DNA of 37,741 bases from a virus (IMGVR_UViG_2541047834_000001); one strand, 5' to 3'. Shown: positions 8,293 through 33,139, counted from the first letter of the stretch. Notes: generated from the letters alone by a model not told the origin. A program made the numbers and translations.

Positions 8293-8339
8293 TAAAATGT
8301 TCTAACGTCTATTGATTTCATGTCTTATGTGGTTTTTAA

Positions 8340-8354
8340 TTACCTAAGGGGTAA
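8340..8354. promoter_or_regulatory. Operator-like palindrome ATTACC-TAAGG-GGTAA
   Basis: Directly upstream of ATG 8358; preceded by TATGTGGTTTTTAA. Confidence 0.5.
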
Positions 8355-8357
8355 ATC

Positions 8358-8702
8358 ATGAGAAAACAGATACAGGCTCTTGGTCGGCTCAAAACAGGCC
8401 AGATGAACAAAACAGAATCTGCGTATTGCCAGCACCTTGAGCAGCGTAAACGTGCAGGGGAAGTCGCCTGGTATCGGTTCGAGGGTATCAAGCTGCGGCT
8501 GGCTGACAACACGTTTTATACGCCCGATTTCGCTGTGATGCTCGCCACCGGAGAGATGGAACTGCACGAAGTGAAAGGTTTCTGGACCGACGACGCCAGG
8601 GTGAAAACCAAAGTCGCCGCAGATCAGTATCCGTTCCGAATCATCGGGGTAACGGTTAAACCAAAGAAAGCAGGTGGTGGCTGGAATATCGAAGAGTTCT
8701 GA
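8358..8702 (+). CDS. Phage protein, DUF1064-like
   Basis: 114-aa ORF with AGGGG RBS; assignment from recalled family pattern, unverified. Confidence 0.5.
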   Translation: MRKQIQALGRLKTGQMNKTESAYCQHLEQRKRAGEVAWYRFEGIKLRLADNTFYTPDFAVMLATGEMELHEVKGFWTDDARVKTKVAADQYPFRIIGVTVKPKKAGGGWNIEEF

Positions 8703-8763
8703 ATCGACGATCTTTTTAGTTATCAATGTAATCAATAAGTTATGTGGATAAGCGAGGGTAAAG

Positions 8764-9435
8764 ATGGAAAGTAATATCAAAGGGTTAGTTTCCGCCGGGC
8801 ATGAGATGGCTTCGGAACTGAAAGCAGAATGTGGTGCCGTTGATATGCGTAGTGTGGCAAAGCTGATCAGCGATTTGGCAACGCAACTGGAAGTGCAACT
8901 GGTGCGTGCTAATGCGCTGGCGGCGGAGAATGCGAGACTGAAGGCCGGGGCTATGTATTTCTCATATGGCTCTGAATTTAGTTTCGAGTGTCACAAAACT
9001 GCTGAGGAGGCTATCGCTGCTGCTGAGGCTGCAATTGACGACTATAGAGGCGATGCTTGCGATGGATGGAGCGAAGAGGTCGAAAGCATTTGCTGGGGGG
9101 TAATTATTCAGCAGGCAACCAAGGTCGGTGAACGCAAGAAGAGGAAATGCGACAGAGTATCACCATGGATTGAAAGAGTTTGTGATTATGAGCTTCGACC
9201 TAATGTCGAAACCCCAGCCACCGATGCTTTCCTGTCTGAAGTGCGGGCGCAGGGGGTGGATGCTGCCATAGAAGCTGCAAAAAATCTGGTGGCCCAAGAA
9301 TATGAGTATAAGGATTTCAAAGCGGCGCAGAGTGATTGCTGTATGCACCCTGGTTCAGACCTGGTAGGGAAGGTTGAAATGACTGAGTGGTTAGTTGACT
9401 TTGCTGCCCAGCTTCGCAAAGGAGGCAACCAGTGA
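8764..9435 (+). CDS. Hypothetical protein (223 aa)
   Basis: ORF with GAGGG RBS; Cys-containing, Ala/Glu-rich. Confidence 0.55.
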   Translation: MESNIKGLVSAGHEMASELKAECGAVDMRSVAKLISDLATQLEVQLVRANALAAENARLKAGAMYFSYGSEFSFECHKTAEEAIAAAEAAIDDYRGDACDGWSEEVESICWGVIIQQATKVGERKKRKCDRVSPWIERVCDYELRPNVETPATDAFLSEVRAQGVDAAIEAAKNLVAQEYEYKDFKAAQSDCCMHPGSDLVGKVEMTEWLVDFAAQLRKGGNQ

Positions 9436-9698
9436 GTGAGTCAAAATGCCAAATTAATGGCAACAAGATAGAACCGTGCGCGGCGTTGACGCAATCCCTG
9501 GAGCATGACGCTGAATACACGACGCGGAAAGGTCTGCTGAAATACAAAATCTATAACCATGAATTAATTCATTCACAAGACCTGATCATGCTGCGGTCTG
9601 GTGAATTTTCTAAATCACCGATTCGAGTTTCATTTTGCCCGTTCTGTGGTGAAAGTCTGAAAACGTGGGAAGCGGAGGCAACCAGTGAGCAAGATTAA
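9432..9698 (+). CDS. Hypothetical protein (88 aa)
   Basis: GTG start inside conserved GGAGGCAACCAGTGAG cassette; overlaps upstream stop. Confidence 0.45.
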   Translation: MSESKCQINGNKIEPCAALTQSLEHDAEYTTRKGLLKYKIYNHELIHSQDLIMLRSGEFSKSPIRVSFCPFCGESLKTWEAEATSEQD

Positions 9699-10494
9699 CT
9701 ATCAGGCTCTGCGACTGGCGGCAGAGCAGGCAATGCATGACGACTGGGGATTTGATGCGGACCTTTTCCATGAGCTGGTAACACCATCGATTGTGCTGGC
9801 ACTACTGGATGAACGGGAAAGAAACCAGCAATACATCAAATCCCGCGACCAGGAGAACGAGGATATTGCGCTAACGGTAGGGAAGCTGCGCGTTGAACTG
9901 GAAGGCAAAGACAGCAAGATAGCCAATCTTACCGCCGAACGCGATGCTCTTCGTGAAGGTGAGATGGGCGACGCTAGGCATAGCAACACACGGGCCGCAG
10001 CTGATATCTACTTCCAACTGGTCGAGGAGTGCGAAATTCCTGCTGGCGGTTCTCTGGTCGAGTACGTTGACGATATGCGCGAGAAGCTGGAAGCCGCAGA
10101 GAATAACCTCATTGATAGTGAATGCCATGTTGCTGAACTGGAAGAAGCGCTACGCGATAAGCAGGCGTTACTTGAAGCATCAGAAAAGCGCATAGCAGAA
10201 CTGGAAGCACGGGAAATAAAACCAGCCAAAGGTGAAGTTCTTGTCGTTGTTTCTGGTTTTACTGGTTGCGGAAAAAGCGCCATCGCCGGGGAAATAGAAA
10301 TCGCGATGAAGGCTATTGGTGTACCGGTTCAGTGGACTAATGGCGATGCGGAAAAGCGCATGACAGGAGCTGACTGGCTGACAGCGATTGAGATGTACAA
10401 ACCAACAGTGCGCATCGTGGAAGTTAATGTGCCGCGCGCCGCAGGCATTCGCATCAAAGGAGACACAGGAGAACAAAACGATGAAAAACCGTAA
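9685..10494 (+). CDS. Coiled-coil protein, Ead/Ea22-like (tentative)
   Basis: 269 aa; GTG start inside a second GGAGGCAACCAGTGAG cassette; central heptad-rich region. Confidence 0.55.
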   Translation: MSKINYQALRLAAEQAMHDDWGFDADLFHELVTPSIVLALLDERERNQQYIKSRDQENEDIALTVGKLRVELEGKDSKIANLTAERDALREGEMGDARHSNTRAAADIYFQLVEECEIPAGGSLVEYVDDMREKLEAAENNLIDSECHVAELEEALRDKQALLEASEKRIAELEAREIKPAKGEVLVVVSGFTGCGKSAIAGEIEIAMKAIGVPVQWTNGDAEKRMTGADWLTAIEMYKPTVRIVEVNVPRAAGIRIKGDTGEQNDEKP

Positions 10495-10657
10495 AGCAAA
10501 ATTACTTCTTTTATCGCGTTCGACGGGGTACGAGAAGCTACCAATCAGCAATCACAAACGGGCGGTGATCGGCATGTATGGTAGGGTGGTATTCGCATTT
10601 AACTATAAACCCACCGCGTCGCGGAACAGACGAGAGAAGGGGTACGCAGTGCGATGA
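10481..10657 (+). CDS. Small basic protein (58 aa), paralog 1 (MKNRKAK...)
   Basis: ATG with AGGAG-like RBS; ATGA-coupled to next ORF. Confidence 0.35.
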   Translation: MKNRKAKLLLLSRSTGYEKLPISNHKRAVIGMYGRVVFAFNYKPTASRNRREKGYAVR

Positions 10658-10845
10658 AAAATCGTAAGGCAAAGATGCTGATAGCAAAGCCCGGGCAGCG
10701 TATCCGTATCTCAAATCGGCTTGTTATTTACTATAGATATCTGGGTTTTAGGGGGTGTTCCTCTATTCGTTTTTACGGTGTCTGGCGAAACAGAAGCGCA
10801 GCACAAAACCGCTGGAAAAACCACTTTCGCACTAAAGGAGAGTGA
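10654..10845 (+). CDS. Small basic aromatic-rich protein (63 aa), paralog 2 (MKNRKAK...)
   Basis: Shares N-terminal heptapeptide and first ~20 nt with the preceding ORF; ATGA overlap. Confidence 0.35.
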   Translation: MKNRKAKMLIAKPGQRIRISNRLVIYYRYLGFRGCSSIRFYGVWRNRSAAQNRWKNHFRTKGE

Positions 10846-10846
10846 T

Positions 10847-10996
10847 ATGGCTAAGTACATCGTGACTATCGAAGGATTTAATGATTGCAAGGTTGTTGAG
10901 TTTGAAGCAGACACGCCAGAGGATGCCGAAGAAATAGGCAGAGACATATTCTATGAAGAATGCAACTACGGCGTATCACCTGCTACAGAGGACTAA
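10847..10996 (+). CDS. Hypothetical small acidic protein (49 aa)
   Basis: MAKYIVTIEGFNDCKVVEF...; AAAGGAGAG RBS. Confidence 0.5.
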   Translation: MAKYIVTIEGFNDCKVVEFEADTPEDAEEIGRDIFYEECNYGVSPATED

Positions 10997-10999
10997 CAC

Positions 11000-11938
11000 A
11001 TGACCACTATTACCAAAGAGCGACTGCTGACAATCAAGCAGTGGCGCGAAACATACGGACCTGGTAGCAACGTTGTACTGCCAGCAGAAGAAGCGGAAGA
11101 GCTGGCACGGATTGCTCTGGCATCGCTGGAAGCAGAACCGGTGGCATGGACTGATGAAGAGGAACTGCGCGATGTCAGGAAGTATGGTTTCGGTGAGATA
11201 TTTCAGTGTCCGCCAGATAAATATGCGGACCCGCGTCGTGTAATCTCGCTGTATCGCGAGCTGCCAGCACCGGTAGTGCCAGATGATTGGCAACTCGTAC
11301 CTAAGAAAATAACACTGGAAATGGAATGTGCTCTATCAAAAGCTGATAGCTATGAAATTGGTTGGCTATGGGCATTGGCAGCCGCACCTAAATACGAAGT
11401 ACAGAACGCTAAACGCGTGCAAAACGCGCTTAACGCCTGCCGCGCCGCCATGCTTCAGTCCGGAAACTTTCGGGAAAACAAGAATTCGTCAACCAATAAT
11501 TTTCGGGAAATCGCGGAAACGTCAACCAACTATCCGGCAATTCCTAGTGAGGTGTTGTCCGCAATCCTGAAGGTTGCCAGGATTCGTGCCGATTTCGATG
11601 ATTTTGACGGTGACAGGCGAGGTATCGGTGATTGTCTGGATGAGGCTGAGCAAGAGCTTATCGTTACCATTAACAAATATGCCAGTCAGTTGGCAGCAGA
11701 ACCGATAGCGACTAATGACGTTCGAGAGCAGCAGACAGCCGTTCCGCCAGTTCCGGAAATACAGGATGATGTCGCGCAAGCAATTGAAAATCTCAAGCAG
11801 AAGTTAGTGGAATGCAATCGCTATAACTACTGCGCAGATGCAGTTAAAGGCGTAGAGGATGCCTGCCACGCTGCCATGCTTCAGGGTAGGGAACGCCTTG
11901 TTCTGGATGCCGCTACCAGAACCGCCGCAGGAGGTTAA
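11000..11938 (+). CDS. Hypothetical protein (312 aa) with internal repeats
   Basis: Long ORF; repeated peptide N/DAC(R/H)AAMLQ and tandem ~33-bp DNA repeat at 11468-11532. Confidence 0.6.
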   Translation: MTTITKERLLTIKQWRETYGPGSNVVLPAEEAEELARIALASLEAEPVAWTDEEELRDVRKYGFGEIFQCPPDKYADPRRVISLYRELPAPVVPDDWQLVPKKITLEMECALSKADSYEIGWLWALAAAPKYEVQNAKRVQNALNACRAAMLQSGNFRENKNSSTNNFREIAETSTNYPAIPSEVLSAILKVARIRADFDDFDGDRRGIGDCLDEAEQELIVTINKYASQLAAEPIATNDVREQQTAVPPVPEIQDDVAQAIENLKQKLVECNRYNYCADAVKGVEDACHAAMLQGRERLVLDAATRTAAGG

Positions 11939-11941
11939 TTG

Positions 11942-12226
11942 ATGGACTCCTTCGCGAAATATACGATTATTGACTGGATAGCATTCCTTCAGGTTTTGCT
12001 CATCTGGTTTTATATGGCTTACAGGAGTGGACAGTGGATTGTCAGTGTAGCCTGTAGCAAGGGATGGCGTTGGTGGAACCGAAAGAATAAAAAAGCACTG
12101 GCCTTGGATTCGTTTTACGAAGCGTTCAATCTCAACAGCCTTCAGCCTGGTTCTGTCATTGTAGTCACCACTCAAAGCGGCGTGACGATACAAATTCACA
12201 AGCCAAAGGAGGAAGGTCGTGGCTAA
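11942..12226 (+). CDS. Hypothetical small protein, likely membrane-associated
   Basis: ATG at 11942 with GCAGGAGG RBS; hydrophobic N-terminal segment. Confidence 0.5.
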   Translation: MDSFAKYTIIDWIAFLQVLLIWFYMAYRSGQWIVSVACSKGWRWWNRKNKKALALDSFYEAFNLNSLQPGSVIVVTTQSGVTIQIHKPKEEGRG

Positions 12227-12500
12227 CCTGCAACTTGCCGTTAAAGGTGAATACTTCGATGCCATGATTCGCGGAGAGAAAACGGAAGAGTATCGCTTGT
12301 GTAATGACTACTGGAATAAGCGAATTATGTTACGCGAGTATGACCGCCTGATTATCACAAAGGGATATCCGAAGCGCGACGACTCCAGTCGCAGAATTGA
12401 TGTTCCGTATGGAGGGTATGAAATCAAGACAATCACACATCCGCACTTCGGCGATAAACCGGTAAATGTGTTCGCGATAAAGGTAAATATTGATGGCTAA
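12219..12500 (+). CDS. ASCH / DUF3850-like protein
   Basis: GTG start with AAGGAGGAAGG RBS; LAVKGEYFDAMIRGEKTEEYR resembles the ASCH-like pattern (recalled, unverified). Confidence 0.55.
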   Translation: MANLQLAVKGEYFDAMIRGEKTEEYRLCNDYWNKRIMLREYDRLIITKGYPKRDDSSRRIDVPYGGYEIKTITHPHFGDKPVNVFAIKVNIDG

Positions 12501-12831
12501 ATCAGCAGCAGAGCGCAAAGCCGCTCAGAGAGCCAGACAAGCTGCATCTGGTGTGCGTAAGCTGGAAATTGTGCTTGATGCTCAGGAAATTGAAATGCTG
12601 GAGCGTAACTGTGCCACGCGTCGCCCCGGGCGTGCGCCTTACGAATTTGGTGAGTATATAGCGTTACTGATCCGCCAGGATGATGCACGCGTGCGCGGGC
12701 GTATAAAATCGATCAGCAGAAAACGTTGCGGTAAGTGCGGCGAGAGAGTTCCAGTTAATTCATGCCCGTGCAATGGTGACTCGCAATGCTGGGTGACTAA
12801 AGGCTGGCATGAAACGAAATTAATAGTGTGA
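12493..12831 (+). CDS. Zinc-ribbon protein (CxxC...CxC), candidate late-gene regulator
   Basis: Basic N-terminus, C-terminal RKRCGKCGERVPVNSCPCNGDSQC; last early gene before terminator and terminase genes. Confidence 0.5.
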   Translation: MAKSAAERKAAQRARQAASGVRKLEIVLDAQEIEMLERNCATRRPGRAPYEFGEYIALLIRQDDARVRGRIKSISRKRCGKCGERVPVNSCPCNGDSQCWVTKGWHETKLIV

Positions 12832-12839
12832 CATGTCAC
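12828..12839. promoter_or_regulatory. Perfect 12-bp palindrome GTGACATGTCAC (copy 1)
   Basis: Overlaps stop codon of zinc-ribbon gene; terminator 42 nt downstream. Confidence 0.45.
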
Positions 12840-12880
12840 GAGTAGATTATGCATGATGAATTTGATGTGTTTTGAATACT

Positions 12881-12906
12881 GCCGCCAACTATGGCGGCTT
12901 TATTTT
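12881..12906 (+). terminator. Rho-independent terminator upstream of terminase genes (tR'-like)
   Basis: GCCGCCA-ACTA-TGGCGGC hairpin followed by TTTATTTT. Confidence 0.65.
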
Positions 12907-12917
12907 GCATGGTACTA

Positions 12918-12932
12918 TTACCACAACGGTAA
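12918..12932. promoter_or_regulatory. Operator-like palindrome TTACC-ACAAC-GGTAA before terminase genes
   Basis: Immediately 3' of terminator 12881-12906; followed by second TTACC and GGTtA. Confidence 0.45.
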
Positions 12933-12949
12933 CTATTACCACGGTGGTT

Positions 12950-13546
12950 ATGATGCCTGCTGAACCTAAAACCTATAAACGCAAATCAACGCAATTTAAG
13001 CCGCTCACAGCAATGCAGGAGGCTTATTGCCAGTCATACATCAAAACGCCTGAAAACCAGACTCAGGCAGCGATTAATGCAGGATTCTCCCCAAATACAG
13101 CGGCAGTTAAAGCCAGTGTCATGATGCGCGATGAACGCATTCAAAAACGGATTGCCGAGTTGATGGAGGAGCGCAACAAACGAATGCGCGTCAGTGCTGA
13201 TTACGTTCTCATGCGCCTGGTGGAGATCGACCAGATGGACGTGATCGACATCCTCAACGACGATGGGAGCCTTAAGCCAATCCGCGAGTGGCCGAAAATC
13301 TGGCGCACTACGCTTAGCGGCTTTGATCTGTCATCGACCATCATGAACATGAACGAGGATTCGATAGAGACAATCCTCAAAAAAATTAAATGGCCTGACA
13401 AGGTGAAGAACCTCGAACTGATTGGTAAGCACGTCGACGTCAACGCATTCAAAGAACGCCTGGATGTTAATGTGAATGTGACAATTGCTGATCGCATAGC
13501 AGCAGCCAGGAAGCGACTCAAAGAACGTCAGGATGGTAATCAGTGA
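12950..13546 (+). CDS. Terminase small subunit
   Basis: LTAMQEAYCQSYIKTPENQTQAAINAGFSPNTAAVKASVMMRDERIQKRIAELMEE typical of small terminase subunits; coupled (GTGA) to large subunit; in-frame ORF extends to 12872 but that region contains the terminator. Confidence 0.7.
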   Translation: MMPAEPKTYKRKSTQFKPLTAMQEAYCQSYIKTPENQTQAAINAGFSPNTAAVKASVMMRDERIQKRIAELMEERNKRMRVSADYVLMRLVEIDQMDVIDILNDDGSLKPIREWPKIWRTTLSGFDLSSTIMNMNEDSIETILKKIKWPDKVKNLELIGKHVDVNAFKERLDVNVNVTIADRIAAARKRLKERQDGNQ

Positions 13547-15018
13547 CAGATACAGTGTTATCTCCTGAAGAGCAGTTGATCGAGGATATTGCAGGGTTTA
13601 CTCACGATCCGCTTGGTTATGCCCTCTATGCGTTCCCGTGGGGGGAAGAGGGGACTGAACTGGCACATGCCACCGGTCCACGTCAGTGGCAGGCCGATGC
13701 GTTCCGAGAGATACGTGATCACCTGCAGAATCCAGAGACGCGATATCAGCCGCTTATGCTGGCACGCGCTTCTGGTCACGGTATTGGTAAATCCGCATTC
13801 ATCTCAATGCTGATCAACTGGGGCATGTCCACTTGCGAGGATTGTAAGGTCGTGGTGACCGCCAACACCGACAACCAGCTGCGCACCAAGACATGGCCGG
13901 AAATCATCAAATGGTCGAATCTGGCTATCACGAAAGAGTGGTTCACCTGCACCGCCACGGCGATGTACAGCAATGACCCAGGCCACGACAAGCGCTGGCG
14001 AGCTGACGCAATACCGTGGTCTGAGCACAACACAGAGGCGTTCGCCGGGCTGCACAACGAGCGTAAGCGTATCATCGTGGTATTCGATGAAGCATCCAAC
14101 ATTGCCGATCTGGTGTGGGAGGTAGCAGAGGGTGCGCTGACGGACGAAGACACTGAGATTATCTGGGTGGCATTCGGAAACCCTACACGTAACACCGGGC
14201 GTTTCCGCGAATGTTTCCGCAAATATAAACACCGCTGGAAAACTGCGCAGATTGACAGCCGGACGGTGGAAGGCACTAACAAACAGCAGTTGCAGAAATG
14301 GGTTGATGACTACGGGGAAGACAGCGACTTCGTTAAAATCCGTGTGCGCGGCATATTCCCGGATGCATCTGAATTGCAGTTTATCCCTACCGGCCTTACT
14401 GACGAGGCAATGAAACGGGTGGTAACCGCTGCGCAGGTTGCACATGCTCCGGTGATAATCGGCGTTGACCCGGCATACTCCGGCGTTGATGACGCTGTGA
14501 TATACCTGCGGCAGGGGCTGCACAGTAAGGTGCTATGGACTGGTAACAAGACCACCGACGATCTGATTATGGCGAAGCGTATCGCTGACTTTGAAGACCA
14601 GTATCAGGCTGACGCGGTGTTCATCGACTTCGGTTATGGAACCGGTTTGAAGTCAATCGGTGATGGCTGGGGACGTACATGGCAACTTGTTCCGTTCGGC
14701 GGTGCGTCCACTGACCCGCAGATGCTTAACAAGCGTGGGGAGATGTTCAACTCATGTAAGACATGGCTGAGGCTGGGCGGCATGCTGGATGACCAGGAAA
14801 CTGCAGACGACCTGTCGGCGGCAGAGTACAAAGTTCGTGTGGACGGTAAAATCGTTATCGAACCGAAGGAAGATATCAAAGAGCGTCTTGGGCGTTCTCC
14901 TGGTAAAGGCGATGCGCTACTGCTGACGTTTGCTTTCCCGGTCTCGAAACGCATAAATATACCAGGACAGCAAAGCCAGCAGGGAAGGGCCATAACGGAT
15001 TATGACCCTTATGCTTAA
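13543..15018 (+). CDS. Terminase large subunit
   Basis: 491 aa; Walker A-like ARASGHGIGKS, acidic VVFDEASN motif, C-terminal nuclease-like region. Confidence 0.85.
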   Translation: MTDTVLSPEEQLIEDIAGFTHDPLGYALYAFPWGEEGTELAHATGPRQWQADAFREIRDHLQNPETRYQPLMLARASGHGIGKSAFISMLINWGMSTCEDCKVVVTANTDNQLRTKTWPEIIKWSNLAITKEWFTCTATAMYSNDPGHDKRWRADAIPWSEHNTEAFAGLHNERKRIIVVFDEASNIADLVWEVAEGALTDEDTEIIWVAFGNPTRNTGRFRECFRKYKHRWKTAQIDSRTVEGTNKQQLQKWVDDYGEDSDFVKIRVRGIFPDASELQFIPTGLTDEAMKRVVTAAQVAHAPVIIGVDPAYSGVDDAVIYLRQGLHSKVLWTGNKTTDDLIMAKRIADFEDQYQADAVFIDFGYGTGLKSIGDGWGRTWQLVPFGGASTDPQMLNKRGEMFNSCKTWLRLGGMLDDQETADDLSAAEYKVRVDGKIVIEPKEDIKERLGRSPGKGDALLLTFAFPVSKRINIPGQQSQQGRAITDYDPYA

Positions 15019-15069
15019 TCCGCTGGTGGGGATAATGTCGTTGATATCCTCTGGTGAGGATAAAACAAA

Positions 15070-15095
15070 GCCAGCTCATAGGCTGGCTGTTTGTG
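15070..15095. terminator. Bidirectional terminator between convergent terminase and minus-strand gene
   Basis: GCCAGC-TCATAG-GCTGGC hairpin flanked by AAAACAAA and TGTTTGT. Confidence 0.5.
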
Positions 15096-15104
15096 ACATG
15101 CCAC
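15093..15104. promoter_or_regulatory. Near-palindrome GTGACATGCCAC (copy 2)
   Basis: Adjacent to bidirectional terminator 15070-15095, just 3' of minus-strand gene. Confidence 0.4.
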
Positions 15105-15108
15105 GGTG

Positions 15109-15483
15109 TTATTGCTCGCTTAACTTCTGCTTCAGCAAGTAACCTTCGAGCATCCAGATTTTGTTTACAGCATTCTGCCGGGCAATCTTCCGACCAATTT
15201 CTGCATCAAAGTTTTCCGGGCTTGCACAGGCACTCTCTCCGGTGACGGTGAAGCCATTCTTCAGCACCAGTACGCAGAAAGTGAGAAGGTGCAGAGCATC
15301 AGGGGTGGCTTCGACATAAGGCTCCGGATTATAAATAAGGTCATCTTCTTTAGCCTGGTGGTCACCCTGCGCAGCAGTGAAAAAATGCTCACTGCAAATG
15401 AGGCCTTCAATTTTCTCGGGTGTTACACGCGGTGCCGTTTTGCCTTTCTCAACGATTTCTTTTTCGATTTGCTGGTCGTTCAT
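15109..15483 (-). CDS. Hypothetical phage protein (124 aa); possibly N4 gp49 / Sf6 gp66-like
   Basis: Clean minus-strand ORF co-oriented with the tRNA; family assignment tentative. Confidence 0.55.
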   Translation of the reverse strand: MNDQQIEKEIVEKGKTAPRVTPEKIEGLICSEHFFTAAQGDHQAKEDDLIYNPEPYVEATPDALHLLTFCVLVLKNGFTVTGESACASPENFDAEIGRKIARQNAVNKIWMLEGYLLKQKLSEQ

Positions 15484-15681
15484 AATCTCACCTTAAAAAA
15501 ATGCCCGGCGAACCGGGCGAACTGGAAGCAATGAGTTATGCCTTCCGTGGCTGTACGGGTTTACAGCATGAAGTCATCGCAATGGCGTCCTGCTGTAAAA
15601 AGGGCGGTGATAGTCCTTCAAGGGAAACTATCACCGCCAAGCACCTGGAACTTCTGGCATCACGGTCCTTAGGCGTGATTC

Positions 15682-15758
15682 TGGCGTGGCATGCAGGATT
15701 CGAACCTGCGACCAACCGCTTAGAAGGCGGTTGCTCTGTCCAACTGAGCTAATGCCAC
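15682..15758 (-). tRNA. tRNA-Arg (anticodon UCU, reads AGA)
   Basis: 77-nt cloverleaf on minus strand: acceptor GTGGCAT/ATGCCAC, D-stem GCTC/GAGC, anticodon stem ACCGC/GCGGT with loop CTTCTAA, T-arm GCAGG-TTCGAAT-CCTGC, discriminator G, encoded CCA. Confidence 0.9.
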
Positions 15759-15779
15759 AACGCTGAGAGCACTTAGCCT

Positions 15780-16010
15780 GTTAAGGCGCCACACTTTGTC
15801 GCGGCTCCATAAATGCTCTCATCGTTGTACCCTCGTCTCTTCCGAGGCGTCACACCGAATCGCCAGGATGGTGAGTCCTCGGTCCGACGATATGAACGGG
15901 GCTTGCACATTCCGGCTACCTGGTTCGTTTGCCCGAGCAAGGGAGGGTGCCCCTTAAACGTATCCAGACCGCTATCGGCGCATGTGCCATACGCCGTACT
16001 GCTCAAAATA
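15780..16010 (-). other. GC-rich hairpin-dense noncoding region 5' of the tRNA (candidate structured RNA / leader)
   Basis: About 230 nt with several inverted repeats (e.g. CCGAGG...CCTCGG, GAGAGCA...TGCTCTC); overlapping ORFs on both strands look non-protein-like. Confidence 0.3.
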
Positions 16011-16078
16011 AAAGCTCACTCCACCTGTTCAATTTAACGACAAGCCAGTCAGGTTAATAACCGGAATGAACCCTTTGC

Positions 16079-16093
16079 TTACCTGAAAGGTAA
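16079..16093. promoter_or_regulatory. Operator-like palindrome TTACC-TGAAA-GGTAAT between tRNA cassette and portal operon
   Basis: Perfect half-sites in a divergent intergenic region. Confidence 0.5.
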
Positions 16094-16183
16094 TAATTTG
16101 TGCGTTAAATGTCAACTATCTACGATAAATAAATCATATGTGGTTAAATTGGTAATAATTTAATTGCGTACGGAGTCATTGAT

Positions 16184-16390
16184 ATGTGCATGGGGAGCTC
16201 ACCATCAGTGCCTGCAACACCAGAAGTTCAGGTAGCACCACAGGAGCAGGATGCCGCCGTTGTTGATGCCCGCGACGAAGAAACACGTCGCCGTCGCGCT
16301 GCTGCTGGTCGTAGTTCTACGCTGCTTACCGGTTCTCAGGGCGACACATCAACCGCTAATACCAGCGGTAAAACGCTGCTTGGTCAGTAA
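16184..16390 (+). CDS. Hypothetical small protein (68 aa) preceding portal
   Basis: ATG preceded by GGAGTCATTGA, the same RBS context as the portal gene. Confidence 0.45.
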   Translation: MCMGSSPSVPATPEVQVAPQEQDAAVVDARDEETRRRRAAAGRSSTLLTGSQGDTSTANTSGKTLLGQ

Positions 16391-16404
16391 CCGGAGTCAT
16401 TGAA

Positions 16405-18377: not shown

Positions 18378-18379
18378 TC

Positions 18380-19075: not shown

Positions 19076-19083
19076 GAGAGGAA

Positions 19084-20076: not shown

Positions 20077-20127
20077 CGCCTGTTATTAACCTGTGGGTCG
20101 TAACAGACCCACTAATGGAGAAAGAAG

Positions 20128-20565: not shown

Positions 20566-20566
20566 G

Positions 20567-20911: not shown

Positions 20912-20928
20912 GCCTCGCGAATCAGACA

Positions 20929-20949: not shown

Positions 20950-20961
20950 GCAGGAGTGTAT

Positions 20962-27883: not shown

Positions 27884-29682
27884 GTTACTTTGGCCTTAAT
27901 CCAGTAAACCAGAATCAGCAGCTTGACGAAGCAGCATCAAATCCAGCTGGCTTTAACAGCGATGTTGGTTTTTTCGACAATGCTGTAGGAGCGGCATTGT
28001 CTGGTTTGTACTCCGGGCTGGTGGCAAAGCCAGATCAGTTGCTATGGGCAGGGATGGATAAAATCGTATCCCCGATTGCTCAGTTTGTTAACGAAAACAC
28101 CTCGATCAATGACACTTCAGTTTCATACATTGCTGAGCAGAGAAAACTAGCAGAGCAGCAGGTTAAGCGGCTGACGCCTGATGCCGCGACAACCGGAACC
28201 GCCGGGCAGGTCCTTTATGGGTTGTTCGATATGGGCGGGCAGGCTGTTGTCGGTACAACGCTCGGTGGTCCGGTCGGAGGTGCTGCGGCGGTAACTTCTC
28301 TACAGGGTTTTTCTGAGTTTGAACGGCTGACAGCACAGGGTGTTGATTTCAGGACGGCGCAGGAAGCGGGATTAGTGCAGGGTATTACTGCTGGTGCCGG
28401 AACACTGATCCCTATGAGCCTCGGGTTACGTGCTGGTGGTGCACTGGCGGAAGGTGTGGCGGCTCAGCTTGCGCGGACGGGTGAAAGTTCAGTGCGACGC
28501 GCCGCAGCAACAGCAGTACGTGCAACGCCAGATATTGCCTATGCCGCAGGTACAAATATTGCGTTCGGTATGGCACAGCGTGGGCTTACTGCAAAAACGC
28601 TTCGTGATGGTGGCTATAGCGAAATGGCTAACCAGTATGATGTGTTGGATCGACAGGCAATTGCTATTGATGCTGTTCTTGGGGTGGCGTTTGGTGGTGT
28701 CGGCAGATTTATTAACTCTCGCGGCGAGTCTACAAGCGCACCAAATTTTTCACCAGTTGATGTTGATGCTGCACTGGCGGCGAATGCCGCTCATCATGCT
28801 GAAATTGATATTGCGCCCGGCGTGCCGATCAACGTGCTTTCGCGCAATTCTCACATTCAGGCTCTGCGAAAAGCTATGTCTGATGTTAGCCAGGGGAGAC
28901 CTGTAGACGTTGCCAGCATTGTTGAGTCTGCATCTTTCAGTGAAATTCCTGGGCGCAAGAGTCTGCTGTCTCAGGCAGTTAATGAGGCTCTGTCATCTGT
29001 AGATGATGGAGTAACGGCGCGCGCTATAGAAAATCGGTTGCTTGAAGAACAGGCCGCGCAGCTTTTGCCGCGTGGCGATAGACAGGTTTACCAGTCTGAA
29101 ATAGCTAATAGCCAACGAATTATTGAAAATCTCACTGAACAGCGCGCACAAATTCTTGCAGAAGAGCCAACCGGTAGCGGTAAATCTTTGTCTCGTGCTC
29201 GATCAGATAAACAGGTCAGACTTCGCGATATTGACCAACGAATCCGGCAGGCACAAGAACGCCTGGAATTTTCCCGTAACGCGTTGGCACCGCATGAGCC
29301 TGGCGGTCAGTTTTTTGAAGCTCGAGCAGAACTGGCACGGAGACAGCAGGCTGAAAGTGAACTTAATGCTCAGGCTGTTTCATTCTATAAAACAGCAGAG
29401 GTCAGGACGCCAGGCGAAGTAGCTCCTTTTGAGCCTGATAAAATATTGCAACAGGCAGAACAAAAAATGATGGCGGATCAGGCAGGAGATATTGATCTGC
29501 GCATAGCTGAAGACTCGCTGCTTGAATCACCTGACATGATAATCACCGTGCTGGATGATGATGGTAATCCACAATCGCGCAGCGCGCGTGAAGTACTGGA
29601 TGAAGCGAACAGGGAAAGTGAGCAGGCAATACAGGATTCCAGCCTGTTTGATGTCGCTGTGGCGTGTTTCTTGAGAGGTTAA
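27880..29682 (+). CDS. Internal virion / ejection protein (N-terminal part of gp16-like function)
   Basis: 600 aa; ATGA-coupled; Ala/Gly-rich N-terminus and coiled-coil C-terminus. Confidence 0.65.
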   Translation: MSYFGLNPVNQNQQLDEAASNPAGFNSDVGFFDNAVGAALSGLYSGLVAKPDQLLWAGMDKIVSPIAQFVNENTSINDTSVSYIAEQRKLAEQQVKRLTPDAATTGTAGQVLYGLFDMGGQAVVGTTLGGPVGGAAAVTSLQGFSEFERLTAQGVDFRTAQEAGLVQGITAGAGTLIPMSLGLRAGGALAEGVAAQLARTGESSVRRAAATAVRATPDIAYAAGTNIAFGMAQRGLTAKTLRDGGYSEMANQYDVLDRQAIAIDAVLGVAFGGVGRFINSRGESTSAPNFSPVDVDAALAANAAHHAEIDIAPGVPINVLSRNSHIQALRKAMSDVSQGRPVDVASIVESASFSEIPGRKSLLSQAVNEALSSVDDGVTARAIENRLLEEQAAQLLPRGDRQVYQSEIANSQRIIENLTEQRAQILAEEPTGSGKSLSRARSDKQVRLRDIDQRIRQAQERLEFSRNALAPHEPGGQFFEARAELARRQQAESELNAQAVSFYKTAEVRTPGEVAPFEPDKILQQAEQKMMADQAGDIDLRIAEDSLLESPDMIITVLDDDGNPQSRSAREVLDEANRESEQAIQDSSLFDVAVACFLRG

Positions 29683-29687
29683 ATTAA

Positions 29688-32162
29688 ATGAGACAGGAAT
29701 GTATACAAGCGGTCCAGCAGGCGGCGCAGCGCACGTTAACGGCGCGAGAAATACAGAACATTGAAGACCGCATTTATCGAAATATGCGCTCCATTGCTCG
29801 TGATGACCCGATGTCGTGGAGACAACTTTCCGAATCAGAGCGGCTATATCGTGCAGCACAATTGGCATCTGAAGAATTACAGCGAGAAGCGGCATTAAAG
29901 AAACGTCGTGTGGCCCTCACTATAGCCGCACGTCAGAGATTGGATAAATTTATCAATAGCTATCAAGGGGCTGATGGGAAACTTGGCGCTCTTAACCGTA
30001 CTATTGCTTTTAATGCAGACGGTAAATCGAATTTCCTCTCTGTTGAATCCAGAACAAAAGCCACTCGTGATTATGCATTGAGTCAATTGCAGGAGGCATT
30101 CGAAGCAGTTGATCCTCGCTTTTTTGGTCTGTTTGAAGATGAAGCGGGCGTACGTGACCTGGTATATGAAATGCGAGGGCAAAATACTGGCAATGCTAAA
30201 GCAAGAAAAGGTGCTAAGGCGTGGAGAGAAGTGACAGAGCTACTGCGCCGCCGGTTTAATGATGCTGGTGGGGACATTGGCTATCTCGAAAACTGGGGGC
30301 TCCCTCAACATCATTCTATGGAAAAGGTTGGGGCGGTATCAAAGGATAAGTGGGTTAGCGATGTTATAGGTAAGCTGGATCGCAAATATTATACCCGAGC
30401 CGATGGACAACTGATGAACGATGCCGAGTTGTCTGCATTTCTTGGAGAGGCTTATAACACGATCGCTACTGGTGGGCTGAATAAGCTTACTGATACCGGA
30501 ATGCGAATTTCCGGCGCACGTGCTAACCGGGGTAATGCATCACGACAGATACATTTCAAAGATGCAGATTCCTATCTGCAATATCAGCAACTTTATGGCG
30601 ATCGCTCTCTATGGGAAATCATGGTCGGTCACCTGGAAGGTATCAGTAAAGATATTGCACTGGTGGAAACATATGGCCCAAACCCCGATCATGTTTTCCG
30701 CTCTCTTCTTGATCAGGTGAAGGCAGAAACGGCAACAGCTAACCCGAGTAAAACCGGTAAAGTCGAGCGGCTGGCGAACAACACAGAGAATCTGTACAAC
30801 TTTATTTCCGGAAAGACACAGCCTGTAGCGAATCCGCACATCGCGCGATGGTCTGACAATATTCGCAACTGGCTGGTTGCCAGCAGACTCGGATCCGCGT
30901 TGCTGTCATCGTTCTCTGATCTTGGAACCATGTATCTGTCTGCGAAGGTTACCAACCTTCCAATGAACCAGTTATTCCGCAACCAGCTTGAAGCTATGGA
31001 CCCAACGAACCGTACAGAACTTGCGCGGGCGCGCCGCGCTGGTCTGGCGATGGAATCTCTACTTGGCAGCGTTAACCGCTGGGCGATGGATAATATGGGG
31101 CCGTCAGTGTCTCGTTGGGCGGCAACGGCGGTAATGCGTGCCAGTGGGCTTACAGCATGGTCAGATGCGCACAAGCGCGCCTATGGCGTAACCATGATGG
31201 GAAGCCTGGGAGAAGTAGTGTCACGAACACCAGACCTTCGTAGCCTCGATGACTCTGATTTTCGTATCCTGAAAAGCAAAGGGATTACTGACACAGACTG
31301 GAGCGTATGGAAGCTGGCGCAACAGGAGGACTGGGGGAACGGTAATAATACGATGCTGACACCGGAAAGCATTATGCGTATCCCTGATTCAGCAGTTAAA
31401 CATCTTGGTGAGCCTGAACGCGTGAAATTTGAGGCAATGCGTAAACTGCTCGGTGCCGTAACTGAAGAAGTTGATATGGCTGTTATTACACCGGGAGCAC
31501 GTGAGCAACTGATAACCGGTTCTGGTATTCAGCGTGGAACATGGAAAGGTGAATTAACGAGAAGTGTTTTCCTGTTTAAATCGTTCCCTATCTCGGTTGT
31601 TATGCGTCACTGGTCACGCGCTATGGGTATGCCGTCTGCTGGTGGGCGTGCGGCATATATTGCGACGTTTATTGCCAGTACGACCATTCTTGGCGCTTTG
31701 TCGCAACAACTTAACGACCTTGCGTCTGGTCGTAATCCTCGAGAGATGACAGGAGAAGATGCCGCAAAATTCTGGCTTGGTGCTCTACTGAAAGGTGGTG
31801 GTCTTGGCCTTTATGGTGACTTTTTATTGTCAGATCACACTAGGTACGGAAGCGGCGCGCTGGCGTCGATGCTTGGCCCGGTAGCTGGTCTGGTTGATGA
31901 CGTAGTGAAGATTGCTCAGGGCATACCGTTAAATGCTGTGGAAGGGAAGAGTGAGCAGACTGGTGGTGATCTGGTGAAGCTGGGGAAAGGTTTGATGCCA
32001 GGTGCGAATCTCTGGTACTTGAAGGCGGCTCTCGATCACATGATCTTTAATCAGATGCAGGAGTATTTTTCACCAGGCTATTTGCGTAAAATGGAGCAAC
32101 GTTCGAAGAAAGAGTTTAACCAGACATACTGGTGGCGACCTCAGGATGTCACTCCGCAATAA
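29688..32162 (+). CDS. Internal virion / ejection protein (gp16-like, large)
   Basis: 824 aa; synteny. Confidence 0.65.
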   Translation: MRQECIQAVQQAAQRTLTAREIQNIEDRIYRNMRSIARDDPMSWRQLSESERLYRAAQLASEELQREAALKKRRVALTIAARQRLDKFINSYQGADGKLGALNRTIAFNADGKSNFLSVESRTKATRDYALSQLQEAFEAVDPRFFGLFEDEAGVRDLVYEMRGQNTGNAKARKGAKAWREVTELLRRRFNDAGGDIGYLENWGLPQHHSMEKVGAVSKDKWVSDVIGKLDRKYYTRADGQLMNDAELSAFLGEAYNTIATGGLNKLTDTGMRISGARANRGNASRQIHFKDADSYLQYQQLYGDRSLWEIMVGHLEGISKDIALVETYGPNPDHVFRSLLDQVKAETATANPSKTGKVERLANNTENLYNFISGKTQPVANPHIARWSDNIRNWLVASRLGSALLSSFSDLGTMYLSAKVTNLPMNQLFRNQLEAMDPTNRTELARARRAGLAMESLLGSVNRWAMDNMGPSVSRWAATAVMRASGLTAWSDAHKRAYGVTMMGSLGEVVSRTPDLRSLDDSDFRILKSKGITDTDWSVWKLAQQEDWGNGNNTMLTPESIMRIPDSAVKHLGEPERVKFEAMRKLLGAVTEEVDMAVITPGAREQLITGSGIQRGTWKGELTRSVFLFKSFPISVVMRHWSRAMGMPSAGGRAAYIATFIASTTILGALSQQLNDLASGRNPREMTGEDAAKFWLGALLKGGGLGLYGDFLLSDHTRYGSGALASMLGPVAGLVDDVVKIAQGIPLNAVEGKSEQTGGDLVKLGKGLMPGANLWYLKAALDHMIFNQMQEYFSPGYLRKMEQRSKKEFNQTYWWRPQDVTPQ

Positions 32163-32171
32163 GGAAGTGTT

Positions 32172-32345
32172 GTGTTTTTAATTATTTTGAGTGTGATAAT
32201 TTCTGGTGGATTGTTATTTATTGACCGCTACAAATATTTTCTTAACCCTCAGACTCAAGCTATTTGCTGGTTCATCTTTGTTGTGCAGGGAGTAGTTCTT
32301 GTTGCAAGCCTTATTGAGGGGAGGCCTCTTATTTTTACTGGGTAA
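32172..32345 (+). CDS. Small hydrophobic membrane protein (57 aa), AT-rich moron
   Basis: GTG start 4 nt after AAGGAAG; VFLIILSVIISGGLLFIDRYKYFLNPQTQAICWFIFVVQGVVLVASLIEGRPLIFTG; about 30% GC; not in ORF track (size cutoff). Confidence 0.4.
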   Translation: MFLIILSVIISGGLLFIDRYKYFLNPQTQAICWFIFVVQGVVLVASLIEGRPLIFTG

Positions 32346-32357
32346 ATAGGTGACTAC

Positions 32358-32654
32358 ATGCAAGCTATAGGATTCATTGTTTATATCGTCGTTGGTCTTT
32401 TTCAGTTGGCAGCAATTATGGCTGGGCTTGAATCATGGTGGGGATTGCACTGGATAATTGCAGCCCCCATTGCTTTCATCGTGAGCTATATTCCATTTGT
32501 TGGAGCGATTGTTGGTATGGTTGGCGCTGTGGATGTATGGCGGTGGGAGTGGTGGCAGGCTGGCCTTCTCTTCTTTGGTGGGATCATCTTTGCTATTGTC
32601 TGCGGTGGAATGTCATCATTTTTCGAATGGCTATCATTCAGAAAAGGGACGTGA
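32358..32654 (+). CDS. Trp-rich integral membrane protein (98 aa, about 3 TM)
   Basis: Hydrophobic segments; stop embedded in GTGACATGTCAC palindrome; followed by terminator. Confidence 0.55.
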   Translation: MQAIGFIVYIVVGLFQLAAIMAGLESWWGLHWIIAAPIAFIVSYIPFVGAIVGMVGAVDVWRWEWWQAGLLFFGGIIFAIVCGGMSSFFEWLSFRKGT

Positions 32655-32662
32655 CATGTCAC
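32651..32662. promoter_or_regulatory. Perfect 12-bp palindrome GTGACATGTCAC (copy 3)
   Basis: Overlaps stop codon of membrane-protein gene; terminator hairpin starts 2 nt downstream. Confidence 0.45.
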
Positions 32663-32663
32663 A

Positions 32664-32688
32664 GGCCGCTTTCGCGGCCTTTAAATTT
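32664..32688 (+). terminator. Terminator hairpin GGCCGC-TTTC-GCGGCC + TTTAAATTT
   Basis: Perfect 6-bp GC stem with T-rich tail; between convergent genes. Confidence 0.55.
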
Positions 32689-32962
32689 ACCGGGTTTGTT
32701 TTCGTAATTGTTCGGCACAATAGTCGAGATGTGTTTGCAGATCCTGCATAGACATCTGTGAGCTGGTGACATAGTTAATCAGTGCAGTCAGTTCGGCAAG
32801 TGGGCCATCGACATTAAATCCATCCTTATCGAGATCCCGGAGTAATTTCATCAAGTGCGATCCCTCCACCAGTGACCTGACGCCTCCCGGCGTGTGAATC
32901 CTTTCGGTAAATCCGTCTTCCAGTGGATAGTGATACTGCTGCATCTTATCTTCTCCATGCAA
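32687..32962 (-). CDS. Hypothetical soluble protein (91 aa), reverse-oriented moron with own promoter region
   Basis: Only minus-strand gene in the structural module; upstream intergenic 32963-33139 contains an ATTACC-N5-GGTAAT site. Confidence 0.55.
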   Translation of the reverse strand: MHGEDKMQQYHYPLEDGFTERIHTPGGVRSLVEGSHLMKLLRDLDKDGFNVDGPLAELTALINYVTSSQMSMQDLQTHLDYCAEQLRKQTR

Positions 32963-33020
32963 TAACTGTATATTTATACAGTATCAAATAATTTGTTTGC
33001 TATCCAGCACGTTTTGCAAA

Positions 33021-33035
33021 TTACCCGAAAGGTAA
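33021..33035. promoter_or_regulatory. Operator-like palindrome ATTACC-CGAAA-GGTAAT between moron gene and tail fibre gene
   Basis: Perfect half-sites; followed at 33067 by TATGTGGTTTTTAA. Confidence 0.5.
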
Positions 33036-33139
33036 TATCTATTCGTATTCACAGTCTTTCTATCCATATGTGGTTTTTAAGGTAATAGAATAACCAGATA
33101 TGCGGCGCAACGGGTGCTGCGACTATCTGGAGATTTAAC

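Follow-up and report, generated by a model that had tools for sequence, protein, structure and literature searches.

The question raised by this locus is why a 14-mer, TATGTGGTTTTTAA, should stand in identical form in two distant intergenic regions of a viral genome, and whether it belongs to a promoter element. The stretch that we analysed (IMGVR_UViG_2541047834_000001, 37,741 nucleotides, hereafter the window) is a complete phiV10/epsilon15-like (Uetakevirus) prophage. The first-pass annotation had reported the two copies, variants at two further places and palindromes in the same regions, and had suggested a composite promoter element. Both exact copies were recovered on the + strand (Table 1), with TTACC-N5-GGTAA near each, as was ATATGTGGTT at 16136-16145; AAATGTGGTT is present, but at 6356-6365 and not at 6357-6366, a shift of one. 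The string ATGTGGTT occurs four times in the window (6358, 8327, 16138 and 33068, all on the + strand). The exact 14-mer repeat by itself is not significant: about three repeated 14-mers are expected by chance per 37.7-kb window (mononucleotide shuffles), and several other 14- to 16-mer repeats, chance-looking and in coding DNA, are present. The four occurrences of ATGTGGTT are also marginal only, as 6 of 100 shuffles reach this count. The significance of the motif comes from its context and conservation, not from the bare repeat.

Neither the 14-mer nor ATGTGGTT proved to be the functional unit. The unit is a 14-bp dyad beginning 5 nt upstream of the 14-mer, with consensus A-w-y-C-r-T-A|T-R-T-G-G-T-T and ideal form AACCATATATGGTT, and the 14-mer corresponds to its right half plus flank. 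The last 5 nt of the first copy (TTTAA) fall within a -10-like hexamer (8335-8340), and three of the last five in the tail-fibre copy vary across the population. In a comparison of 46 distinct sites (five site classes, many lineages), six of the seven left-half positions have a commonest base complementary to that of the right-hand partner, and positions 1, 4, 7 | 8 and 10-14 carry more than 1.3 bits each. Where four sites had been claimed, six were found in the window, the missed ones being that of the lysis promoter and a weak copy in the leftward early promoter PL (Table 1). All six lie between genes, five of them at the start of a rightward unit (replication, nin-like, head, tail fibre and lysis genes). 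The dyad is annotated in none of the genome records examined, and is apparently a conserved, undescribed feature of phiV10/epsilon15-type prophages.

Table 1. Positions of dyads, putative repressor operators and related features in the window.
Feature	Position	Strand	Sequence	Remarks
Weak dyad-like site	5193..5206		ATGCGTATTTGGTT	17-bp spacer of leftward early promoter PL
Repressor gene	5307..5891	-		Product homologous to solved SPC32H Rep
Cro-like helix-turn-helix gene	6046..6276	+		epsilon15 gp39 homolog
Putative Rep operator, one mismatch	6332..6346		GTACCTCAAAGGTAA	Adjoins site D
Dyad site D	6352..6365		AACCAAATGTGGTT	5 nt past operator 6332-6346
Putative Rep operator	8278..8292		TTACCTAGTGGGTAA	Upstream of nin promoter
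Dyad site A (nin-like promoter)	8321..8334		TGTCTTATGTGGTT	Weak left half
14-mer copy 1	8326..8339	+	TATGTGGTTTTTAA	Right half of nin dyad + 5 nt of -10-like hexamer
Putative Rep operator	8340..8354		TTACCTAAGGGGTAA	5 nt after dyad
epsilon15 gp49-like gene	12490..12831	+		Annotated 'transcriptional regulator' (phrog_536); last gene before terminase genes
Putative Rep operator	16079..16093			Head-operon region, 45 nt upstream of TGTGGTT; also adjoins conserved leftward TTGACA box (16115-16110)
Dyad site C (head/portal operon promoter)	16132..16145		AATCATATGTGGTT	Followed by AAATT, then GGTAATAAT
Operator half-site	16151..16156	+	GGTAAT	Overlaps -10-like TAATAA/AATAAT; 5 nt after dyad
Putative Rep operator	33021..33035			33 nt upstream of TGTGGTT, 31 nt upstream of 14-mer copy 2; abuts divergent antirepressor promoter
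Dyad site B (tail-fibre promoter)	33062..33075		ATCCATATGTGGTT	
14-mer copy 2	33067..33080	+	TATGTGGTTTTTAA	Right half of tail-fibre dyad + 5 nt
Invariant block	33081..33091	+	GGTAATAGAAT	Operator half-site GGTAAT (33081-33086) + -10-like TAATAG/TAGAAT
Dyad site E (lysis-cassette promoter)	35753..35766		AACCATAAATGGTT	

Seven Uetakevirus genomes were scanned with dyad weight matrices, the window at a threshold of at least 10 bits and six relatives at at least 13 bits. Each genome gave four to six matches, all belonging to intergenic site classes except one coding match in phiV10, a genome-wide specificity that is partly circular because the matrices were derived from the sites themselves. Among unrelated phages, ZF40 gave 0 matches and pOW20-A one weak coding match. 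A matrix built from non-E. coli lineages only recovered five window positions at 12 bits or more, all intergenic, as compared with a mean of 1.5 in shuffled sequence.

Co-occurrence in related prophages had been proposed as a check on the element, and relatives in E. coli, Salmonella, Klebsiella and Enterobacter do share the five site classes and their locations, with four or five sites in each genome; the portal-class site is also found in more distant viral contigs. At the head-operon promoter, the 45 nt from operator to TRTGGTT are retained even in lineages with unalignable sequence in between, and one lineage has 34 nt (45 minus 11). The tail-fibre block TATCCATATrTGGTTTT is invariant save at its R position (G/A) in 55 distinct aligned upstream sequences, window included, while its flanks vary. 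Similarly, some 39 upstream variants of the lysis promoter have nothing in common left of the dyad and everything in common from the dyad onward, and many lysis promoters have a perfect dyad without a canonical operator. Site D is placed between the terminator behind the cro-like gene and the replication genes (gene start 6427). A conserved GATC and a T-run come after it, and Salmonella-type contigs have a perfect AACCATATATGGTT in this position.

From its location we infer that the dyad is a promoter element. At PL, nin and lysis alike it takes those 14 bp of a 17-bp spacer that directly adjoin the -10 box: site A is the -10-proximal part of the spacer from TTGATT (8312-8317) to TTTAAT (8335-8340), site E lies between GTAACA (35744-35749) and TATTAT (35767-35772), and the PL copy between a -35 at 5215-5210 and a -10 at 5192-5187. 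Enterobacter phage BUCT554 has a strong PL dyad, epsilon15 none. The head and tail-fibre promoters appear to lack a -35 box, and the dyad sits where one would be; a consensus scan reported no sigma-70-type promoter at either site. Measured to the best -10-like hexamer, the gap after the dyad is 0-1 nt at nin, 7-8 nt at the head promoter, 0 or 7 nt at lysis and 7 or 10 nt at tail fibre. The GGTAAT half-site after site C is kept in all lineages, but 4-7 nt from TGGTT.

The TTACC-N5-GGTAA palindromes are annotated as repressor sites in the epsilon15 record, and are presumably bound by the product of the window's repressor gene. The dyad is a second, distinct class of site; what holds of the composite element is a conserved cis-element lying with palindromes in promoter regions at fixed spacings, but not its unity. 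Centre-to-centre distances between operator and dyad take only the values 19.5, 40.5, 41.5, 42.5, 43.5 and 52.5 bp, fixed per class and near whole helical turns, placing the dyads on the same helical face as the nearest operator; for chance occurrences of this composite pattern in bacterial genomes the spacing distribution is flat. Both the predicted start site and the ribosome-binding site for the gene at 8358 fall within the operator at 8340-8354, and no repressor palindrome occurs upstream of site E in this window.

Judging from these sequence patterns, the dyad is most likely the docking site of a phage regulator. That it represents a second regulatory site class, at which a dimeric phage-encoded protein would bind and set the timing of middle and late transcription, seems to us an evenly balanced proposition. 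Each rightward post-immediate-early unit would then have one dyad in its core promoter, with a weak copy in PL. At the head and tail-fibre promoters the bound protein would be a required activator, as at P1 Lpa or lambda CII sites, while at the sigma-70-type promoters (nin, PL and the window's lysis promoter) it may compete with RNA polymerase or modulate it. A search of the literature found no transcription start or binding data for phiV10/epsilon15-type phages; the motif, its symmetry, positions, conservation and spacing are observed, whereas protein binding, the identity of the binder and the sign of regulation are inferred. Many lysis-cassette variants, the window's included, are operator-free yet must stay silent in the lysogen, which fits a promoter needing a lytic-phase factor. 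On the other hand, the inconstant distance from dyad to -10 sits poorly with an activator of strict geometry and better suits a repressor, and at three promoters, one of them late (lysis), the dyad is inside the spacer, a position in which binding normally represses.

Repression might come from Rep itself, if the dyad (ACC-N6-GGT) were an auxiliary operator, a weaker-binding form of the Rep/Cro palindrome (ACC-N5-GGT). A Rep tetramer would place one of its two DNA-binding units on a canonical operator and the other on the dyad over the core promoter, and the resulting short in-phase loops, or neighbouring contacts where the distance is 19.5 bp, would silence the middle and late promoters in the lysogen. 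The two site classes occur in the same genomes and intergenic regions, are palindromic and share an ACC/GGT half-site core and helical face. A spacing strictly near whole turns is characteristic of DNA looping, the dyad overlaps the RNA polymerase-binding region in every case, and the epsilon15 record predicts an IHF site between operator and dyad at the tail-fibre promoter. The window's repressor is also homologous to SPC32H Rep, which is reported in PMC9638917 (after Kim et al. 2016) to sit on DNA as a tetramer in which the members of each DNA-binding domain pair belong to different dimers. Nevertheless, we consider this origin unlikely. The Rep/Cro operator is a 15-bp TTACC-N5-GGTAA (often ATTACC..GGTAAT) and the dyad a 14-bp AACCA-N4-TGGTT, whose inner spacing is 1 bp longer, whose centre is AT-only and whose flanks outside the core differ (AA..TT against TT..AA), and the two take different positions within promoters. 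Moreover, at many lysis promoters with a perfect dyad a tetramer would find no canonical operator to hold on to, two canonical operators 62 bp apart are already present at PL and nin, loops of 40-52 bp would be very tight, and the lytic activation of promoters without a -35 box would be left unexplained.

It is improbable that host RNA polymerase alone reads TRTGGTT, as a -35 substitute, an extended -10 or a spacer signal, with no separate regulator. The block does always fall between about -36 and -13 with respect to plausible -10 hexamers, it is oriented like the downstream genes except for the weak PL copy, and its TRTG resembles the TRTGn '-16 region' motif reportedly found in extended -10 promoters. 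However, with TRTGn taken as an extended -10 the next hexamer would start with TT and lack the essential A at -11: the six bases after TRTGG are TTTTTA, TTAAAT or TTTATT, never with A second, and so depart from TRTGnTATAAT (TG at -15/-14, A at -11, T at -7). The left half is conserved symmetrically, whereas RNA polymerase elements are asymmetric; the offset to candidate -10 hexamers differs among site classes, and the PL copy is reversed relative to transcription.

A role in RNA, as a hairpin, processing or antitermination signal in 5' leaders read through from upstream, appears more doubtful still. Several units are preceded by terminators, + strand genes follow five of the six copies, the epsilon15 record has a predicted RNase III site whose start coincides exactly with the TGTGGTT of the lysis promoter, and in one lysis variant a symmetric double change (CCGTTTACGG) leaves the palindrome intact. 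Yet the possible hairpin has only 5 bp with two G-C pairs, folding z-scores of the five regions range from -0.15 to -2.5 with stable structures elsewhere in the leaders, the nin motif lies between -35 and -10 and would not be transcribed from that promoter, and the PL copy is antisense to PL transcription. The dyad sites gave no match to an Rfam family, the sole window match to Rfam 15 (covariance models, gathering score) being a tRNA at 15685-15758. Finally, that we see a chance repeat, or passively conserved duplicated promoter DNA without function of its own, agrees with the repeat counts given above for the 14-mer and ATGTGGTT but is hardly credible, as the comparative data already contradict it: persistence at all five places across genera with diverging flanks, spacing preserved over unalignable spacers, a block invariant in the population save one G/A position, and window matrix matches confined to intergenic DNA.

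For a phage regulator docking at the dyad, none of the binders considered stands out. The gp39 homolog most likely binds the repressor's palindromes, judging from a homolog in a Psychrobacter phage that lies opposite a classical CI repressor among ATACC-N5-GGTAT operators. The gp49-like product is an unproven candidate: homologs are present in phages without the dyad, which argues against it, and its structure model is of low confidence and without a fold match. The zinc-finger domain of gp40 is widespread in unrelated phages, which likewise speaks against that protein. Among the window proteins screened, none matched the CII, Mor/C or Ogr families.

Compared with known systems, the dyad may loosely resemble the Lpa-dependent late promoters of phage P1 with their '-22 region', where a short inverted repeat lies just upstream of the -10 with no -35 annotated in the P1 record, heads many late units and coexists with dispersed repressor operators. 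The activator gene of P1, lpa, is directly upstream of the pacA/pacB terminase genes, as the gp49-like gene is directly upstream of terminase genes here. The large terminase subunit of phiV10 is annotated as PacB-like. However, the P1 repeat, AAGTnACTT, is unrelated in sequence to AACCATATATGGTT, with no similarity to the dyad in the P1 sequences extracted; it has 9 bp and a fixed 4-nt gap to TAnnnT, as against 14 bp and gaps of 0, 7, 8 or 10 nt to -10-like hexamers, and the dyad, unlike it, is also found at early and middle promoters. BLASTP of the gp49-like product, the only one compared, found no similarity to P1 Lpa (E = 21).

The sites of lambda CII (PRE, PI, PaQ), Mu C/Mor and P2 Ogr are likewise activator sites replacing a missing or poor -35, but the dyad resembles neither the direct repeats of CII (TTGC-N6-TTGC), which serve lysogeny promoters, nor the Mu and P2 sites, which lie further upstream, around -43 to -55. 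P2 Cox, 186 Apl and Mu Ner are small second regulators whose sites are distinct from those of the immunity repressor and which turn down early promoters; the likeness is that of a second small regulator with its own sites, the difference that the repressor's palindromes are most likely also the sites of the Cro-like protein here. A lambda Q-type late promoter (Q-binding element/qut) does not fit, with no match to a Q antiterminator family among the early proteins screened and the dyad at five or six separate units as against a single late promoter with a terminator behind it. Half of the sites read TATGGTT, which destroys the CACA of the DnaA box (TTATNCACA, reverse complement TGTGNATAA), and the 3' part of the dyad is T-rich, not ATAA. 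The dyad has no CTGT/ACAG of the LexA (SOS) box (CTGT-N8-ACAG); a true LexA box lies elsewhere in the window, at 32966-32981. By direct reading no dyad copy fits the IHF site WATCAANNNNTTR, and in the epsilon15 record the predicted IHF sites are next to the dyads and do not coincide with them.

The motif T(G/A)TGGTT recurs in the same five intergenic regions across the relatives that we compared (phiV10, epsilon15, SPN1S, BUCT554 from Enterobacter, Kp4865-1 from Klebsiella, PAT1 and several hundred IMG/VR contigs), and it is the right half of a 14-bp dyad-symmetric site (hereafter the dyad). This cis-regulatory site is real and conserved, and has apparently not been described before. Among 46 distinct sites, the commonest base of the left half complements its mirror position at six of seven positions, and positions C4 and G11 are nearly invariant. 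A matrix scan of the window at ≥10 bits returned six sites, none of them in coding DNA, and a matrix built from non-E. coli lineages alone matched five window positions at ≥12 bits, against a shuffle mean of 1.5. Related genomes carry four to six matches each at ≥13 bits, in the same site classes bar one coding match in phiV10; the scan gave no match in ZF40 and a single weak, coding one in pOW20-A. Full-text literature searches with the motif strings retrieved unrelated papers only, none on phage regulation, and no description of the dyad was found in the searchable literature or in the GenBank annotations examined.

The first-pass annotation had reported a 14-mer repeated exactly at 8326-8339 and 33067-33080, with shorter variants elsewhere, as part of a composite promoter element. 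The two 14-mers do lie at these positions, and the four copies of ATGTGGTT were also located correctly, except for one coordinate that is off by one. Since about three repeated 14-mers occur per shuffled window, such an exact repeat is not improbable in itself, and several other 14-16-mer repeats are present in the coding DNA of the window; the claim therefore depends on context and conservation, and both bear it out. A conserved cis-element was thus rightly flagged, but its limits were wrongly drawn: the true unit is the 14-bp dyad, whose right half alone was seen because it is stronger than the left, and the 'TAA' inside the proposed 14-mer corresponds to three bases that vary freely at the tail-fibre promoter.

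According to megablast against phage records, identities to the window are 96-97% for phiv142-3, PAS61, TL-2011b and ZX5 (57-75% of a 12-kb sample aligned) and for phiV10 (41% aligned), and about 80% for parts of epsilon15 and SPN1S. These matches place the window in the genus Uetakevirus. With an att core at both ends, the window is exactly one complete prophage, from attL to attR; the same core sequence has been reported as attP/attB in ZX5, which integrates at the 3' end of guaA (PMC9782041). The genes are ordered as integrase, leftward early operon, repressor, cro-like, replication, nin-like, terminase, head and tail, antirepressor, tail fibre and lysis cassette. The tail-fibre promoter region is present in 528 of 5,426 complete E. 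coli genomes, so about one in ten carries a prophage of this type. The replication-initiator gene contains about 2.3 tandem copies of a 24-bp unit, CCCAAAAACGGGATGTTGAATGAT (6985-7040), which are probably origin iterons. The longest open reading frame of the small terminase, from TTG at 12872 as annotated in phiV10, crosses a terminator (12881-12898) and two operators (12918-12950); translation probably begins instead at an ATG near 12953, the start annotated in epsilon15.

Genes and dyads of the prophage, with matrix scores and operator-dyad centre distances by site class
Feature	Position	Strand	Score (bits)	Sequence	Distance (bp)
att core, 17-bp direct repeat	1-17 and 37725-37741 (both window ends)			ATTGAGTGGGAATGATT	
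Dyad, leftward early promoter PL (weak)	5193		12.0		19.5
Repressor gene	5307-5891	minus			
cro-like gene	6046-6276				
Dyad, replication genes (after cro)	6352		19.0		19.5
Replication-initiator gene	6643-7458				
Dyad, nin-like genes	8321		13.5	TGTCTTATGTGGTT	42.5 (listed with 41.5); 19.5 to downstream operator
epsilon15 gp49-like gene (last of the nin-like genes, then terminase genes)	12490-12831				
Dyad, head operon	16132		21.2	AATCATATGTGGTT	52.5
Antirepressor gene	32687-32944	minus			
Dyad, tail fibre	33062		22.3	ATCCATATGTGGTT	40.5
Tail fibre gene	33140-35329				
Dyad, lysis cassette (distance for variants with an operator)	35753		19.6	AACCATAAATGGTT	43.5
Dyad, phiV10 lysis and Salmonella-type site after cro				AACCATATATGGTT	

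Conservation around the dyad is selective. In 55 distinct aligned sequences upstream of the tail fibre gene, the window included, TATCCATATrTGGTTTT and GGTAATAGAAT are invariant bar the R position (G/A), while the three bases between these two blocks and the stretch between operator and dyad vary freely. At the head operon, the distance from the palindrome TTACC-N5-GGTAA to TRTGGTT is kept at exactly 45 nt in distant lineages despite an unalignable spacer, and is 34 nt in one lineage. About 39 variants upstream of the lysis cassette have nothing in common left of the dyad, and conservation sets in at its first base; many, including that of the window, are devoid of any palindrome.

The lysis-cassette variants carry many unrelated upstream modules of conversion or moron genes (35740-35753 in the window; loci L282-L361), and homology among them starts exactly with the dyad, as though this site marked a module boundary. 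In the head-operon region, all lineages keep TGTCAA (the reverse of TTGACA; 16110-16115) in the interval from operator to dyad; it probably provides the -35 box for leftward transcription, under operator control, of a tRNA (15685-15758, minus strand) and an Sf6 gene-66-like ORF.

The palindrome TTACC-N5-GGTAA itself occurs 12 times in the window at ≤1 mismatch, versus 0.5 expected. Its assignment as the operator of the repressor Rep rests on GenBank features of epsilon15 and on PDB homology: the epsilon15 record labels equivalent palindromes as repressor-binding sites, before the terminase genes, the head operon, the tail fibre and one nin-region gene as well as in the left operator region, and the window repressor matches the solved Rep of SPC32H (5D50_A, E = 4e-42). 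Similarly, the gene at 32687-32962, whose true start is probably 32944, matches the SPC32H antirepressor Ant (5D50_E, E = 5e-47), and a perfect LexA box (CTGTATATTTATACAG, 32966-32981) lies about 20 nt upstream of ant. LexA box, Ant and Rep agree with the published LexA-Ant-Rep induction pathway of SPC32H, and the position of the box fits an SOS-controlled antirepressor induction of that kind. The lysis-lysogeny switch (Rep, Ant, LexA) of this phage family has been studied; on middle and late gene turn-on we found nothing in the literature searched, and promoter mapping is absent from the papers on ZX5 and on the phiV10 reporter phage. A further operator-like palindrome with one mismatch, TTACCTTAAAGGTAT (151-165), about 45 nt upstream of the integrase gene, is kept in phiV10, epsilon15, SPN1S, BUCT554 and Kp4865-1.

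Operators and dyads are geometrically related. Their centres are separated by 19.5, 40.5, 41.5, 42.5, 43.5 or 52.5 bp only, every distance being ≤1.5 bp off whole helical turns. When viral contigs were scanned for AACCATATATGGTT and bacterial genomes for the composite pattern, chance matches vastly outnumbered a few genuine Uetakevirus ones, and the scans were useful only as a null for spacing; the spacings of the chance matches to the composite pattern in the bacterial genomes have a flat distribution. At PL, nin and the window lysis promoter, -35-like and -10-like boxes are separated by a 17-bp spacer, of which the dyad occupies the 14 bases adjoining the -10 box. PL (5173-5249) and the nin-like promoter (8278-8354) are architectural twins: in each, a pair of Rep operators is set exactly 62 bp apart, with one member about 20 bp ahead of the -35 box and its partner over the predicted start site, and the 17-bp spacer holds a dyad-like site, which suggests promoter duplication or a shared looping design. 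No acceptable -35 box was found at the head and tail-fibre promoters, where the dyad lies 7-10 nt upstream of -10-like hexamers (TAATAA/AATAAT or TAATAG/TAGAAT) that overlap the operator half-site GGTAAT.

A regulatory function for the dyad is plausible. We favour a putative dimeric phage-encoded regulator that would use the dyad to control middle and late promoters, acting positively at those devoid of a -35 box, negatively or as a modulator where the dyad sits in a normal spacer, and in geometric coupling with Rep-bound operators. The closest analogue in design is the late promoter of P1, with an inverted repeat just upstream of the -10 box and no annotated -35 box, the repeat recurring at all 11 late promoters (PMC10695390). 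However, sequence, size and gap differ, and BLASTP of the gp49-like protein against the P1 late promoter activator Lpa found no Lpa homolog; at best, the dyad may work like the P1 system without being a member of it. Activation of MerR type does not apply, as the spacers are 17 bp rather than 19-20 bp and no -35 box occurs at 19-20 bp.

The main rival explanation is that Rep itself binds the dyad as an auxiliary operator, a reading supported by the ACC/GGT core common to dyad and palindrome, by their helical phasing and by the two DNA-binding units of the Rep tetramer, but weakened by dyads that stand alone at lysis promoters and because some activator would be required anyway. We consider it unlikely that a tetrameric, antirepressor-controlled Rep of the SPC32H type has a bipartite operator with the dyad as its second half, and forms very small loops around each middle or late promoter. 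One pair of Rep DNA-binding domains would then occupy TTACC-N5-GGTAA and the other the ACC-N6-GGT dyad at the core promoter, two, four or five helical turns away. If true, this would give a functional reason for the reported 'trans' domain pairing of Rep, linking its unusual structure to genome-wide silencing, with a single repressor shutting down the entire 38-kb genome one unit at a time. An intrinsic RNA polymerase element is disfavoured by the dyad symmetry, an RNA element by weak folding and the lack of an Rfam match, and a chance repeat by the comparative data; direct comparison with consensus sequences excluded a DnaA box, CRP half-site, sigma-54 promoter, T4 MotA box, boxA-like element, IHF site and LexA site. 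Whatever its binder, the dyad offers a mutable handle that labels every regulated promoter and points to a missing regulator, and a compact cis-element for engineering late-expressed reporters, in a family whose members are already used as reporter and typing phage (phiV10) and as a model for antirepressor-controlled induction (SPC32H).

As for the regulator that we favour, the early proteins universal across genera are the methylase, the PerC-like and AlpA-like proteins, the homologs of epsilon15 gp36 and gp37, Rep, gp39 (Cro-like), gp40 (zinc finger), the gp49-like protein and Ant; the Sodalis phage phiSG1 was excluded as a distant relative, being too degraded and chimeric. Like lpa in P1, the gp49-like gene immediately precedes the terminase genes; the N-terminal region of its product is of strand-helix-helix type, and the protein contains a cysteine cluster. 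Homologs occur also in ZF40, N15 and Vibrio phages, of which ZF40 alone was examined: it encodes a 67% identical homolog and a Q-like antiterminator of its own, yet lacks a dyad site, which speaks against this protein by co-occurrence; the argument is not decisive because the putative DNA-contact strand differs at three positions. A Foldseek search with its AlphaFold model (pLDDT 66) gave no PDB match at E < 5. The zinc-finger domain of gp40 is widespread in unrelated phages. gp39 was at first attractive, with an invariant helix-turn-helix (TTSHYIQTHLTG), recognition helix included, and a distribution confined to Uetakeviruses in the phage collection, apart from one homolog in the Psychrobacter phage pOW20-A. 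It was downgraded because that homolog lies in a classical cI-cro region with ATACC-N5-GGTAT operators; by analogy with other Cro/CI pairs, the expected targets of gp39 are the palindromes.

In pOW20-A, an unrelated myovirus (L599, 9640-9710 and 8760-8800), the gp39 homolog stands opposite a classical CI repressor, and the operators have the same core as the Uetakevirus Rep operator; a Cro-plus-operator module seems common to phages with quite different repressors. The 5' leader of the tail fibre gene contains a stable hairpin (33094-33130; folding energy of the 90-nt region -24.9 kcal/mol, z = -2.5), almost invariant in the 55 aligned sequences, which may act in processing or in translational control. 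Immediately after the dyad that follows the cro terminator there is always a Dam site, GATC, and then a run of six to eight T (6366-6377), an arrangement conserved from E. coli to Klebsiella relatives.
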